64,000 nucleotides of DNA, from assembly GCF_018350175.1 (NCBI RefSeq), contig NC_058368.1:102054001-102118000 (forward strand), in the 5' to 3' direction. This stretch comes from Felis catus (lineage: Eukaryota). A model generated the notes under the pieces. It worked only from the letters and a program-made list of their open reading frames with translations, made no database searches and had not been told where the DNA came from. Positions 11,647 to 58,820 of the stretch are shown piece after piece. Numbering within the stretch: the first letter of the stretch is position 1; each line of letters begins with the position of its first letter. A program made the position numbers and the translations under genes.

Positions 11647-12640
11647 CGTTCAACATCACTACTCATCAGGGAAATACCAATTAAAACCACAAGAAGATAC
11701 CACTTTACACCTTTTTACAATGACCATCATCAAGAAGACAAAATATAACAAAAGCTGGAAGGGATGTGGAGAAAAGGAAACCCTTTATACACTGATGGTG
11801 GGAATGTAAATTTGTGCAGCCACTATGGAAAACTATATAGAGGATATTCAAAAGGTTAGTAAGAACCACCCTTGGTCTAGAAATTACACTTTTGGAAATA
11901 TGTCCAAAGGAAATGAAACACTAACTCAAAAAGATATCTTCACCCTCATGTTCATAGCAGCATTATTTACAACAGCCAAGACAGTGAAACAGCCTGAATG
12001 TCCATTGATGGATGGATGGATAAGTTGTGATAGGCACACACACACACACACACACACAGATTATTAACCCCCACACAAAAAAGAGAAATCCTACCATTTA
12101 TGACAACATGGATAGATCCTGAAGTCAATAGACTAAGTTAAGTAAGTCAGACAGAAAAAGGCAAATACCGTATACGATCTTACTTATATAGAATCTTTAA
12201 AAAAAGCAAAAGAAAACTAACACAGAAAAACAGATCAGACTTGGCGTTACCAAAGATGGAGGGCAGGGGGGACTGACTGGAAGGTGGGAAGGTGATCAAA
12301 GGTACAAACTTCCAGTTATCAGACAAACAAGTACAATGGATGTAACATAAACATGATCACTGTAGCTAATACTATTGTATGCATGTAGGAAAGCTCTGAA
12401 AAGAAAATCTTAACAGCTCCTATCACAAGGAACTCTCTTTTCCTTTTATTGTATTTATAGGAGAAGATGAATATTAGCTGAACCTATTGTGCTAATCATT
12501 TCATAATATATGTAAATCAAACCATCAGCTGTATGCCTTAAATTCATGCGGCGATGTAGGTCAATTATTTCTCAATAAAGCTGGGGGGTGGGCGGGGGGA
12601 GGAGGAAATACTAAAAAAAAAAAAAGAAAAAGGAAAAAAG
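11647..12640 (+). mobile_element. L1 ORF2 C-terminal region plus 3'UTR (L1MA/L1MB-like)
   Basis: tcaacatcactactcatcagggaaat..aaaaccaca..gataccact; peptide KDIFTLMFIAALFTTAK; aataaa and A tail. Confidence 0.88.
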
Positions 12641-12644
12641 AAAT

Positions 12645-13057
12645 CGACCAGCCTTACAAAGAATGAAACCCAGCTGTGAATCGGCTCAATCTGTTTGGAT
12701 TAAAGTAATCCATGCCTACTCTAATTGCCTGCCAGAAGCTAAAGAAATCCTCTCTGGAGAAAGGTAACTTTTTTTTTTTTTCCAGGAACCTCTATTATTT
12801 TTAAACTTAATTTCCATAATTCAATAAAAAAGTTCTCAGGTATACAAAATAAAAGCTCAGGGAAAAAAAAACAAAACAAAAAGGAAACTGATGCACAGGT
12901 GATCCAGCTACTGGTTTTCAGAAACAGATTTTAACTGTGATTAATGGATCACAAGGGATAACAAGATGGAACAATGAACCAGAAAACCGGAAATTTCTAT
13001 CAAAAGCATCAAATGGAAATTCTCAACCTCAGACTAAAAAACAACACTATCGGAAGT
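12645..13057 (+). mobile_element. Old L1 5' region/ORF1 fragment (continues at ~19470)
   Basis: Encodes QKHQMEILNL..KNNTI, resembling L1 ORF1p KNQMEILELKNTI. Confidence 0.6.
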
Positions 13058-13117
13058 CAGGAATGCAAGAGAGGTCACTTCACACTGGCCACAAGGGATC
13101 AAAGTAAAACTACTCAC

Positions 13118-13560
13118 CGCAGGGGGTTGCGGTGCATTCTGCGGGGAGCTGCTGGCGGTGAAGGTGAGGAGCGGCCCCAGGGGGCTGCAGGGTCCGGGTG
13201 CACTAGGTTCGCCGCCCGCCCGCCCCGCCGCCGCCGCCACAAGTCCGGCTGTACCAAAGTCCCGGTGGCCTCTGGACTCCACCCGATGGCACCATGCGCT
13301 GGCGGGCGGAGGGGCCCAGCTCACGGACGCTCATCCTGCTGGACTCCCAAGGGGACAAACTACTGGGCTGCATACTCAAGCCCAAGTTCACGGACTTCAC
13401 CCTCCCCAGCCAGGAGCAAAGAGGTTCCAAGGGCCTGGAGGAGGCTGTGCGCGGGCGGGCAACCCCGACAGCAGCTTGGGAAGCACCGACGGCATCCTGC
13501 GTCACGGGTCCGTGGATAACAGCGTAGCCAAACCTCGCCAGTTGTTCACCGAGTTGAACT
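13118..13560. promoter_or_regulatory. CpG-rich, GC-rich segment (retrocopied UPF1 5'UTR and first coding region)
   Basis: Dense CpG, e.g. cgccgcccgcccgccccgccgccgccgcc near 13210-13238, against AT-rich L1 flank; promoter activity not shown. Confidence 0.5.
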
Positions 13561-16500
13561 TTGAATATGTAGATACCTGTGAGGCAAAGGGTCTCCCCAG
13601 GCTTGCGCGCAGTTTCTGCAAAATACACAGTACTGTTTGCCTGATTTACTGTGAGAGCAGCAAGAGGAGGGGCTGTAACCCACGTGTAGAAACGCCTCGC
13701 AGCCGCAATGTAAATCACTTCCTGGGGGCCACAGGCACAGAGGCGACTCGCCACCAGGTTGGGCCTCTCGGACAGACGGTTCTGGAATGTTCTAAGGGTG
13801 GCTGGCTCACCGTCTTCCTCCTCGGCTTCAATCCTGCCAGTGCCAATTGGGTCAAAGCGCTGCCGTCGGAACGGCCCAGTCAAAACAGCCTCAACTGCAC
13901 CCCCCGGGACCACTTGGAGCTGAGGCTTCCTGCGCTAACGAGGCAAGATCCCCTTTGAGCAGGAGTAGCTGTGGGCTGGGCACATCACCACCCTGCAGAT
14001 CAATCCGCCTAGTGGAAGCGCTGGGGCAGGAAAATCCTTCCGCCACCTTGCAGGACTTAGAGAAGCCAGGGTTGGGAGGAGCCAGAGAGCGTCGTCCGGC
14101 TATAGGAGGACGCCTACCACGACCGGATCCTAGCTGGTCCTGGCATCAAGGTGGAGGCCAACTATGATAAGAAACCGGAAAGAGTCCCAGTGTCAAGATA
14201 ACATTATGGCAAGGCGGCACGTGGTCCTTAACGAAGACACAATTGCCTACTTTACTCTGCCTAAGACTATGAGTGCTCTGCTAATGAGGCTTCAGCCAGA
14301 ATTTGTTTGGGATATGCAGCTTACCCAAGGGGACTAGATATGCCTGCGTACAAAGGAAATGGAGTGGGCACCCCCTGTGCAAAGTGATCAGCCACGTCAT
14401 CGAGACCCCTGTCAATTATGGTGATGAGATCACCACTGAGCTGCAGAGCAGTAATGAACGTGCCTGTGGAGGAAATCATCACTTCCAGGTGGATTTCAGG
14501 TGGAAGTCAACCTCGTTCCACAACACGCGGAGCACGCTGAAAATGTTTGCACTGGAGGAGACCTCCATATGGGGTTACATCAGCCACCAGCTGGAGGACA
14601 TGATCGTCAGATGCCAGCTGCCCCAAAATTTCATGGCAGAAGGACTCCCCAACCTGAACCAGTCTTCAGGTTTACAGATAACGACTGTGCAGTAAAGTCC
14701 AACAAGCCAGGATGCAGGAACTGTCAGGCACCGGGAAGATGGTCACCTTGGCCCCCATCAGTTACTACCTGGCCGGGGGAAGTGCGCCCCTATTTGTGTT
14801 CCAAGTAATATAGGCATCGATCAGCTAACGAGAAGATCCGCCAGACGGGGCTGCGAGTCATGCTGTTCTGGATGAGGACTCAGTATCCCTTCTGGCCTTG
14901 CACAACCAGGTCAAGAGCACGGATAGCCTGCCAAGTTCCAGAAGCTGCACCAACTGAAGGAAGAGACAGGGAGCTGTTATTGGCAGAAGAGAAGCCGCAC
15001 CTGACCCTGAAGCTCGCCACGGAGAACGAGCTGCTTATGGGCACAGATGTAGGTATGGGTGTGGGCAACGGAGGCCCCTTTTAATTGATGCACGCTCCCA
15101 TGCCACTGAGCTGGAGGGAATGCATGGTCCTGGCCCAGAGCCCAGAGGAGATTGGCAGCTGAAGCAGCTTCTGCCTGAATAGGAAGGAGACTGCAAACAC
15201 GGAGTAGGTCGTCCCAAAGCTGCTGAAGGAAGGTGCCAAGCCAGACCACATCGGCATCATCAGGCCCTTATCCGGGGCTAGCATCCTACCTGATGCAACA
15301 CGTGCAATTCAGAGGCTCCCTGCATCCCAGGAAGTAGAATTCACTCACGTGGACACATTCCAGGGCCAGCAAAAGGACTTTATCTAACGCTCCTGCATAT
15401 GGGCTACCGAGCAACAAGGCATTGGATTTTTAAACAAGCCCAGACAGCTTAACATGGCCCTGACCAAAGCATGATGTGAGGTCCTTGTCAGAGGCGACCC
15501 AAAGGTCCTGTCCTCACAGCAGCACTGGAAACACCTGCTGAGGCTCCTGAACTCTACCTGTAGTAAAGCTTCCTGCTGCTCAGGAAGCCCAGGGAGCGAG
15601 CCGGTCAACACCATCTATGCAGGGGTCAGATATGACCCCAGGAGGCTATGACCCCAGGGCCAGGCTATGATCAGAGCAGCCAGAGCTGGCCCTGGAACGC
15701 GTACTTCCAGACCCATGACCCAGATGGGCATGATCCGTGCCAGGGCCAGCCACACGGCTGCCATGGACATTGCCCATCCCCTTCAACCTGGTTGTGTGGC
15801 CCGTGCTGCCTCGGGGATATTTTGGACAGGCCGACCCAGGGAATCCCAAAAGGCAAGGCCGATCCTGGGGGATGCTGGATGAACAGCTCTGAGCTTCCTG
15901 GGCCCAGCCAGGCATCTCCCTGCCCACCAGGCCAGTCAGGAGGTGGCACTGCAGCCGTTCTCACTGGGCGCCCTGGCTCAGAGCTCTGTCTTCAGAAGCC
16001 AGCCCTCCAAGGTGAGCCAGCCCGAGCTGTCCCAGGCCAGTTACCCTTGGCAATCAGTTTCAGGCACACATCGATTGACGTGCCACTGTTGCAAGGCTCC
16101 TCGCGGAGGCACGGTGCAGTGATGGGGCTGTCCCAGTATACCAGAAGGGGACTCAGTCCAGCAGCACTTATTTTGAATAATAAAAAGTAAAATAAATAAA
16201 TGGATACCTGTTTTCCGCTGCTGGAACTGGAGGGCCACTGTTAGCCACAGGAGAGGAGCAACTGAGGGAGAGAAGGTCCGAGACAGGACAAGCACCCACC
16301 GCTGGCCCACAGGACGAGGAGATGGGAGCCCTCTGCCAGCCCCTGGGCAGGGAGGCCCCATGCCAAAGCAGCCACACTGAGTACCCGGGGCAGAGGGAGG
16401 AAGCCCCTGATCTCAGAGTAGGCCTTTCGTCTGTTTGCTCTCTTCTCTTTTATAGAAAGGGGACGGTGTTTTAGAAAGGAGAAAACTTTGCCTTTGAGTG

Positions 16501-17561
16501 CCCCAGCAGGTCCCTGGCAGGTGGCTCCTTGCAGGCGGCCAGGTTCCACACTGGCCCCCTGTCTGTGTTCTCAGGGGGCTGTCATTGAAAGAAAAAACAG
16601 CATTTGCGGGTTTTCTGCATTTTAAAGATTCTTTCAAAGGAGTACTGAAAAATATCTTCGCGCCGAGTTTGTCTCGCACGTGATAGTGGTGGATGAAGGA
16701 GATGGGAGATGGTTACGATCCTCGAGTTTAGGATCAACACCTGTGACGAGACCCAGAGAAACAGTTCTGCTTTCAGGTTTAGCTGCCAATGGCTGTTCCC
16801 ACATTGAGGGTGGTGAGGGGGCACCGTGCCAGGCCGGACAGCTCCCCGGTTCTCTGGTGCACTCTGAAAATCAAAGCGCTGACCATGTCTGGTGGCCTCA
16901 CCCCCTTACTCCAAGGGGTTCTGGCAAGACTGGCCGTGAGGCCAGAGAGCAGGAAGGTGGCTATTCTCAGGCCAATGGCTCCTTCCCAGAGTCCTTCCCA
17001 AGGATTTGGTGGAAGACAATGGCCAAGAAGGCCCATCTCCGTGGAGATGCCCACAGTCCCTGTGGCCTGTTAGACAACCTGAGCGCCCCACCCCTCTTTG
17101 TTCTCGAACCACCCCCAGATTTAAAGACCCTCTACCTGTGGGCACAGGTTCAATGAGCAGGGGGTGGTATCAGAAATAAGTTGGTCCTGTGCCAGAGTTT
17201 GGAGGAGTCTGTCACATCAGCTAGTGAAGGAGGCATGTACCTGGATGGGGGTTGCAACTGAAAAACATACTGGAGCTTGGAGAACCACCCCTAGGTTCTT
17301 GCTCACCGTGGTGACCCCCCAGTGACCACCTAGTTGGGAACCGTGCCTTCCTAGGTGGTAGGGGCCCTGATCTCCCCTAGACACTGGCACTTTTTCGAAG
17401 CCTCCAGATTCCAGCTTGTGCACTGGAGAGACAGGGACACCCAGGCCACTTTCCTACTAGCCAGGGCTCTTATTTATTACCGCTGCTATCGGGTTCTGGT
17501 TCCCCCCCTTTTTTGGTGGGGTGCATAGACACACAGTATGTGTGAGGCATGACCCACTGTG

Positions 17562-17583
17562 TGACGCGCCCCCTGGTGACTTC
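17562..17583 (-). promoter_or_regulatory. Candidate CTCF-binding motif
   Basis: Minus strand reads aagTCACCAGGGGGCGCgt; 13/14 match to core CCACCAGGGGGCGC. Confidence 0.55.
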
Positions 17584-18099
17584 CATGCCCACCAATTCCG
17601 TCCCACTGTTCCACTCATTGGAATGCTTTGCCGCCACTTTGTGCGATGTGCTTTCTTCTCTACCTTCCTAGCAGCAGTGATTCTGAGTTTTCCCAAACCA
17701 AGGAGCATCTGTACCAAGGCAACTTTGGATTTTTGGTCAATTTGTCTTAAGCTCTTTTAGAGCCAATAAAGTCTTAATGAGCCCACAAACAAAAACTACA
17801 TACGACAGTAACCATGTTGTAAGGAACCGTGACAAAGTCGAGCAGCCAAAGTTCTTACACGTTGTTACATGGTATACAAAATAATACAAAATCTTTGGGA
17901 AAAGATGTGACAGTTTTTAATCAAAGTAAGTAATGTATTTTCCTTATGATCCAGCAATTTCTATGATCTTAGCATTCAAACTAAGACAAACGAGCATACC
18001 AAAAAAAAGACCCGAATGAGGGTATTTATAGCAGTTTTGTCATATCTCAAAACTAGAATGAGTTCAGTTGTCCATCTATAGAATAAATTAAAAATAATA

Positions 18100-57422: not shown

Positions 57423-58820
57423 TTTTTTTCTTTTTTTTATAGCTTATTGTCAAGTTGGTTTCCATACAGCACCCAGTGCTCATCCCAAATGGTGCCCTCC
57501 TCAATGCCCATCACCCACTTTCCCCTCTCCCCCACCCCCCATCAACCCTCAGTTTGTTCTCAGTATTTAAGAGTCTTTTGTGGTTTGCCTCCTTCCCTCT
57601 CTGTAACTTTTCTTTTTCCCTTTCCTCTCCCCCATGGTCTTCTCTTAAGTTTCTCAGGATCCACGTATGAGTGAAAACATATGGTATCTGCTTTCTCTGC
57701 CTGACTTATTTCACTTAGCATAATACCTTCCAGTTGCATCCACTTTGCTACAAATGGCCAGATTTCATTCTTCTCATTGCCAAGTAGTATTGCATTTTGT
57801 ATATATAAACCACATCTTCTTTATCCATTCATCCATGGATGGACGTTTGGGCTCTTTCTATTATTTGGCTAGGGTTGAAAGTGCTGCTATAAACATGGGG
57901 GTACAAGTGCCCCTATGCATCTGCACTCCTGTATCCCTTAGGTAAATTCCTAGAAGTGCTATTGCTGGGTCATAGGGTAGACCTATTTTTAATTTTTTAA
58001 GGAACCTCCACACTGTTTTCCAGAGCGGCTGTACCTGTCTGCCTTCCCACCAACAGTGCAAGACAGTTCCCATTTCTCCACATCCTCTCGAGCATCTATA
58101 GTCTCCTGCTTTGTTCATTTTAGCCACTCTGACTGGCGTGAGGTGGTATCTGAGTGTGGGTGTGATTTGTATTTCCCTGATGAGGAGAGGCGTTGAGCAT
58201 CTTTTCATGTGCCTGTTGGCCATCTGGATGTCTTCTTTAGAGAAGGGTCGATTCATGTCTTCTGCCCATTTCTTCACTGGATTATTTGTTTTCTGGGTGT
58301 GGAGTTTGGTGCGTTCTTTATAGATTTTGGATACTGGCCCTTTGTCTGATATGTTATTTGCAAATATTTTCTCCCATTTCGTCAGTTGCCTTTTAGTTTT
58401 GTTGATTGTTTCCTTTACAGTGCAGAAGCTTTTTATCTTCATGAGGTCCCAATAGTTCATTTTTGCTTTTAATTCCCTTGCCTTTGGAGATGTGTCAAGT
58501 AAGAAATTGCTGCAGCTGAGGTGAGAGAGGTTTTTTCCTACTTTCTCCTCTAGGGTTTTGATGGTTTCCTGTCTCACATTCAGGTCCTTTATCCATTTTG
58601 AGTTTATTTTTGTGAATGGTGTGAGAAAGTGGTCTAGTTTCATTCTTCTACATGTTACTGTCCGGTTCTCCCAGGACCATTTGTTAAAGAGACTGTCTTT
58701 TTTTCCATTGGATGTTCTTTCCTGCTTTGTCAAAGATTAGTTGGCCATACTTTTGTGGGTCTAATTCTGGAGTCTCTATTCTATTCCATTGGTCTATGTG
58801 TCTGTTTTGTGCCAATACCA
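57423..58820 (-). mobile_element. 5'-truncated feliform L1 (L1_Fc/L1_Carn-like); ORF2 C-terminal ~290 aa remains open (57861-58733)
   Basis: [49 protein letters not shown]; 3'UTR and T tail; taacata TSD core; embedded in older L1M. Confidence 0.95.

Follow-up and report, generated by a model that had tools for sequence, protein, structure and literature searches.

A decayed, full-length UPF1 retrocopy in the cat genome, most likely copied from long-loop UPF1 mRNA

The UPF1 copy and its parent gene

A processed pseudogene of UPF1, a gene for RNA quality control, extending from the 5' UTR to the remnant of a poly(A) tail, lies in the 64,000-nucleotide stretch of the Felis catus genome that we analysed (NC_058368.1, positions 102,054,001 to 102,118,000; hereafter, the window). 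Its parts are listed in Table 1. The copy is on contig C1, and the parent gene is on contig C2 of the same genome.

Table 1. Parts of the UPF1 copy, numbered by position in the window.
Feature	Position	Strand	Basis or remark
UPF1 processed pseudogene, full length (5' UTR to poly(A) remnant)	13106..17808	+	blastn and global alignment to the 24-exon parent; ends taken from the candidate target-site duplication
Candidate left target-site duplication	13106..13122	+	13/17 identical to 17792-17808
Candidate right target-site duplication	17792..17808	+	pairs with 13106-13122
CDS-derived part, dead	13294..16143	+	alignment to parent
Exon-7-derived part, ending at the short-loop (SL) donor position	14191..14280	+	alignment to parent
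Separate 5-nt insertion in the exon-7 part, aligned as 2+3 nt	14268..14275 (about)	+	alignment to parent
Decayed 33-nt long-loop (LL) extension, 24/31 identical, 2 nt lost	14281..14311	+	parent extension C2:14076622-14076654
Exon-8-derived part, abutting the extension, with no intron left between	14312..14414	+	alignment to parent
3' UTR-derived part (parent exon 24)	16148..17776	+	AATAAA at 17765-17770
A-rich remnant, likely a decayed poly(A) tail	17785..17795	+	letters; parent alignment stops just 5' of the remnant

Introns are absent from the copy at 21 of the 23 parent junctions. The other two junctions fall within a 303-nt deletion at 15130, which took out exon 15 together with parts of both neighboring exons, 14 and 16. 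The largest insertion near any exon junction is 3 nt. Identity to the parent is about 76% overall and ranges from 68 to 84% by exon (exons with aligned bases). At the 3' end, the alignment to the parent stops soon after the AATAAA, and the A-rich remnant beyond it is short and decayed. The best pair of segments for a target-site duplication, at 13100/17786, matches at 12 of 14 positions; of 300 random segment pairs, 3.7% do as well, and the candidate duplication is suggestive only.

Both flanks of the copy (12640-13105 and 17810-18080) resemble old, decayed L1 sequence, so that an older L1 fragment was probably the site of insertion. The 4.7-kb copy is free of SINEs, as against more than 20 in the window. 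Elsewhere in the window, the minus strand carries an open stretch of 291 codons (57864-58736) that presumably corresponds to the end of L1 ORF2.

The parent gene was located by a Pfam search (PF18141) of the same genome, and its 24 exons were assembled from 70 kb at C2. It occupies C2:14054721-14092215 and has an open frame of 1119 residues in the SL form or 1130 in the LL form. At the end of exon 7, two GT donors are separated by 33 nt, and the intron measures 188 nt (SL) or 155 nt (LL). Two side observations concern other introns. Intron 8 (C2:14076909-14077379) has a U12-type (minor-spliceosome) donor and a U12-like branch sequence near its end; this intron is cleanly gone in the copy, and three outgroup RefSeq models have six additional residues at the same junction. 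The last intron, intron 23 in the 3' UTR (C2:14089768), appears to have a GC donor, five bases past the point where the stop codon begins, and the copy is without this intron also.

The parent's 33-nt extension encodes GNEDLVIIWLR, the same peptide as in the human protein (PDB 6EJ5). The initial annotation had cited an 11-residue loop insertion of this sequence that arises from an alternative 5' splice site, and both the peptide in the human structure and the second donor in the parent agree with this account. The peptide is identical across human and the RefSeq models of bat, monkey and two rodents. Among 46 protein matches, it is present in four named mammals and three fragments and absent from nine named fish entries, and no named marsupial, monotreme, afrotherian, xenarthran or bird entry occurs among these 46. 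A supplementary legend describes the insertion as found in mammals alone, for an alignment in which human and mouse represent the mammals (PMC5861435). The three fragments (P0002-P0004) translate the extension and the next intron codons exactly as the parent does, which suggests that conservation reaches past the LL donor.

No second UPF1 copy was confirmed in the same genome by searches with DNA, with the PF18141 profile and with the parent as query, whose counts are lower bounds. The DNA search returned the window only, and the PF18141 search returned the parent only, missing the window copy. Four parent-query searches of the genome recovered the window copy; two of these gave the parent and the window only, and one added a single weak match (E 3.75). 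Of 11 further weak matches (E 0.098-8.4), seven were fetched, and none of these seven has a blastn match to the parent cDNA. With one copy found, there is no sign that UPF1 mRNA is a favored template for retrotransposition.

Decay, age and substitution bias

The coding part of the copy holds 11 stops in 901 gap-free codons and 58 indels, 46 of them frameshifting. These comprise 37 deletions, with the 303-nt deletion as the only one longer than 33 nt, and 21 insertions; all insertions in this part other than the extension are 1-4 nt as aligned. The frame is broken, and no protein is made from the copy. Because the first and second codon positions are 22% and 21% diverged from the parent, despite a parent protein that is 98.8-99.7% identical to those of bat, monkey and two rodents, the comparison gives no sign of lasting protein constraint on the copy.

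Functional retrogenes are recognized by an intact ORF, a dN/dS below 1 and expression (PMC5470649). The copy shares with them its origin by retroposition, its full length and a CpG-rich 5' end, but neither an intact ORF nor purifying selection is found in it. RNA reads on the copy amount to one partly fitting read in run X24 and none in run X21, where 12.9 million records of each run were searched (1-2% of the run, tissue unspecified, without a positive control). The single X24 read touches 13394-13487, at the 5' end of the copy, and continues into unlike sequence. We found no role for the UPF1 copy in these analyses.

The copy is evidently old. It differs from the parent by 21% over the 1416 zero-fold, non-CpG sites that are clear of gaps, which corresponds to a K2P distance of 0.25 (0.22-0.28); dating by a clock is unsafe, however, because this distance is inflated by A/T-to-G/C changes. 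Residue 93 is a serine codon in the copy, serine in four of five outgroup proteins and asparagine in the parent, and the retained serine codon indicates that the copy predates the parent's change at this residue. We also considered dating by a Laurasiatherian-type extra glycine at residue 79, which fails because the copy is deleted there. As a yardstick, 22 SINE copies in the window, presumably of a carnivoran, cat-like family, were compared with their own majority line. For A/T-to-G/C changes, the copy is 5.9 times as diverged as the SINEs, and for three further substitution classes, 3.2-3.8 times; the SINE figure is lowered by leaving out alignment columns that contain CpG or in which 20% or more of the copies share a second letter.

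A/T-to-G/C transversions are roughly threefold more frequent than the reverse (59/781 versus 16/635, p 2e-5). With wider gap masks, p is about 1e-4; at isolated mismatches only, the counts are 18/347 versus 7/261 (p 0.15), and total W-to-S against S-to-W change is borderline (p 0.059). Equilibrium GC, estimated from substitutions that are not polarized with orthologs, is 0.56 for the copy and 0.41 for the 22 SINEs, and the flanks are about 35-47% GC. GC-biased gene conversion at some time is likely to lie behind the bias of the copy. Signatures of such conversion have been reported at hypomethylated loci in most mammals, with a deficit in some felids (PMC11161765).

The 5' end of the copy (13001-14250) is CpG-island-like, with a GC content of 0.57-0.63 and a CpG observed/expected ratio of about 0.6, and is unique within the window in this respect. 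Parent CpGs are kept at 10 of 40 positions in this region versus 13 of 118 further 3' (p 0.04), and the region may be unmethylated in the germline.

The exon 7-8 junction

According to the initial annotation, 31 extra nucleotides stand between codons for LPKT and DMQLTQGD. The letters that it quoted are present in the window, and the extra segment is 14281-14311; the range originally given, 14280-14310, is one base off, as a G stands on both sides. That description was right about the 31-nt LL segment but missed the separate 5-nt insertion just upstream. The insert therefore consists of the 33-nt extension less 2 nt, plus 5 nt, for a net gain of 36 nt over the SL form. One frame is open from LPKT through DMQLTQGD and meets a stop eight codons past the insert. 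We ruled out that this open frame is a surviving or new peptide: it is a product of the +5 and -2 indels, it stops early, and the copy carries 46 frameshifts.

Compared with the parent's extension, the 31 nt agree at 24 positions and differ at 7, with one 2-nt gap. When the junction was aligned to both isoforms, as the initial annotation had proposed, the score was 199 for LL and 136 for SL; with the whole intron retained, it was 79. None of 5000 shuffles, 5000 shuffles with the GT kept or 5000 random 33-mers from the parent region reached 199 (z 7.4 versus shuffles). Scored by the length of the extension, the junction has its maximum at 31-33 nt and is lower beyond. Five of the seven changes are A/T-to-G/C, the commonest class in the copy, and, because human, bat, monkey, two rodents and the parent all share one and the same LL peptide, the changes fall on the branch of the copy. 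Since only 4 of the 11 LL residues survive, we regard the match as convincing in its DNA letters and not in its protein.

An upstream alternative acceptor, which would add only the last 0-59 nt of the intron, was rejected, as its best score is 164 versus 199. A contig from run X15 that covers 14024-14402 (depth 4) has no difference over the insert; X15 is possibly the assembly's own source.

Origin of the copy and what it records

We consider it very probable that the locus is a full-length, intron-less, dead copy of UPF1, most likely derived from UPF1LL mRNA and probably made via L1 in a germline or pre-germline cell. What was observed directly is that a second donor lies 33 nt beyond the first in the parent, that the copy has an LL-like junction matching use of this second donor and that its reading frame is lost. 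The earlier proposal that the template was UPF1LL mRNA is thus the most likely one, given the 24/31 match of the extension and the advantage of LL over SL in score. Target-primed reverse transcription by ORF2p is established L1 biology, and the poly(A) remnant and candidate target-site duplication point to this process here. A UPF1LL transcript would have been drawn by chance from a pool in which LL made up about a fifth of UPF1 mRNA, and ORF2p would have reverse-transcribed this polyadenylated mRNA in a germline or pre-germline cell, at an A-rich target that had been nicked. Later decay would account for the seven substitutions and 2-nt loss in the extension and for the 5-nt insertion beside it. 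Because the copy was inherited, the LL splice form was presumably made in such cells at the time of insertion, much as the initial annotation had held for the ancestral germline.

The further suggestion that a single LL copy hints at abundance of UPF1LL in germ cells, or at favor by the L1 machinery, is not supported. LL makes up 15-25% of UPF1 mRNA in diverse human tissues (bioRxiv 10.1101/2021.01.27.428318, Fritz et al.) and is likewise the less abundant form in a report in which its share varies among mouse tissues (PMC5861435). At the human share, one LL retrocopy is a 1-in-4 to 1-in-7 draw and is therefore unremarkable. The likelihood ratio that it provides for a germline LL share of 50-80% is 2.0-5.3, and the 95% interval for the LL share, from 1/1, is 0.025-1. 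One copy cannot show a preference of germ cells or of L1 for LL.

It is nonetheless conceivable, although unlikely, that UPF1LL is enriched in germ cells or early embryos, or that its mRNA is preferentially passed to L1 ORF2p, and that the copy is a trace of this bias. The sole copy found is LL, and the variable share of LL among mouse tissues would allow for such enrichment. UPF1 protein co-purifies with L1 ORF1p and ORF2p and is reported to enhance retrotransposition (PMC5821459), and its presence in L1 RNPs keeps the idea of cis-recruitment alive; because LL is reported to bind RNA better in ATP (bioRxiv 10.1101/2021.01.27.428318), a possible route is tighter binding of nascent UPF1LL to L1 RNPs. 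However, the sample is a single copy in a 2.4-Gb genome, with the small likelihood ratio given above. Moreover, the L1 passages of PMC5821459 considered here concern UPF1 protein, not UPF1 mRNA or isoforms, and testis, germ and ovary go unmentioned in the main text of the preprint. Judged by title and the start of the abstract, none of the literature matches listed, which include 25 of 458 and 15 of 149 from two sets, concerns a UPF1 retrocopy or LL in germ cells; this does not imply absence from print. A bolder version, in which UPF1LL mRNA was over-represented where L1 makes heritable insertions, or was preferentially handed to L1 RNPs, and in which the copy is the earliest direct record of this and possibly predates the split of the living mammal orders that have the isoform, strikes us as slightly more doubtful again.

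A different template, an mRNA that retained intron 7, would also fit the junction if a deletion of 155 nt later removed all of the intron but roughly 28 nt at its start and roughly 5 nt at its end. We scanned 2400 joins, each made of the first L and the last R intron bases. Under four scoring schemes, the exact LL join ranks 13th to 28th; joins that outscore it (199) include 28+5 (203), which has one A-to-G mismatch fewer, and 31+0 (202). These near-equal joins leave the last 2-5 bases of the join unfixed by the letters of the copy, although the join falls within 2-5 nt of the LL donor. The last bases of the extension resemble the last bases of intron 7, and for this reason a trimmed retained intron fits the letters as well. 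The intron is also short (188 nt), and deletions are common in the coding part of the copy, one being of 303 nt. This explanation, however, requires that one intron was kept in a transcript whose remaining visible junctions are all spliced, and that a deletion then began at the LL donor and ended at the acceptor, in each case to within a few bases, where only 1 of 37 deletions exceeds 33 nt. The mismatch that it spares is of a common kind, A to G being found at 10.7% of A sites. Our rough estimate, which is not a computed value, favors LL 100- to 1000-fold, and we regard intron retention as improbable.

More improbable still is an SL-derived copy that acquired the extension later by gene conversion from an LL cDNA or the parent locus, for which we found no direct support. 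In its divergence, the extension does not differ from the remainder of the copy (24/31 versus about 76%, binomial p 1.0), so that any conversion would have happened almost as long ago as the insertion. Identity to the parent in exons 6-9 (0.78-0.81) is only a little above that of the other exons. An independent insertion that landed at the exon 7-8 junction by chance might be imagined from the 21 insertions in the coding part, one of them beside the site, but we set it aside as refuted, because the others are so short and because the in-register 24/31 match is equaled by none of the 15,000 controls; the initial annotation had named a match no better than random as the sign of such an insertion.

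Processed pseudogenes were reportedly treated as records of splice variants by Shemesh et al. in 2006, under the term "genomic fossils". Retrocopies that record past splicing are also the subject of "Fossilized footprints" (Podlaha and Zhang 2009, cited in PMC3162935). With L1-made processed pseudogenes of this kind, the cat copy shares its lack of introns, full length, poly(A) remnant, candidate target-site duplication and retention of an alternative parental junction. It differs from them in recording a known, ultraconserved minor isoform and in being heavily diverged (K about 0.25 at zero-fold non-CpG sites) and GC-biased. The alternative 5' splice site that it most likely follows, 33 nt into intron 7, is that of UPF1LL, or UPF1 isoform 1 (Gowravaram 2018, PMC5861435; bioRxiv 10.1101/2021.01.27.428318; PDB 6EJ5), but the copy itself is dead DNA with a broken frame and 4 of 11 loop residues left. 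Both the LL isoform and the use of retrocopies as splicing records are already known, and the copy is a neat but ordinary fossil.

As such, it offers evidence from RNA for splicing at the LL junction in an ancient germline or early embryo, and donor conservation alone cannot give this. Identical LL peptides already place the isoform in the common ancestor of human, monkey, rodents and bat, and a one-in-five isoform is expected among retrocopies by chance, so the significance is modest; it would carry greater weight if the copy predates that ancestor. If many independent UPF1 retrocopies were LL, a stress-tuned decay isoform would be tied to germline biology or to L1. Should such a bias be real, counts of LL versus SL among mammalian UPF1 retrocopies would provide a readout of germline splicing over tens of millions of years.
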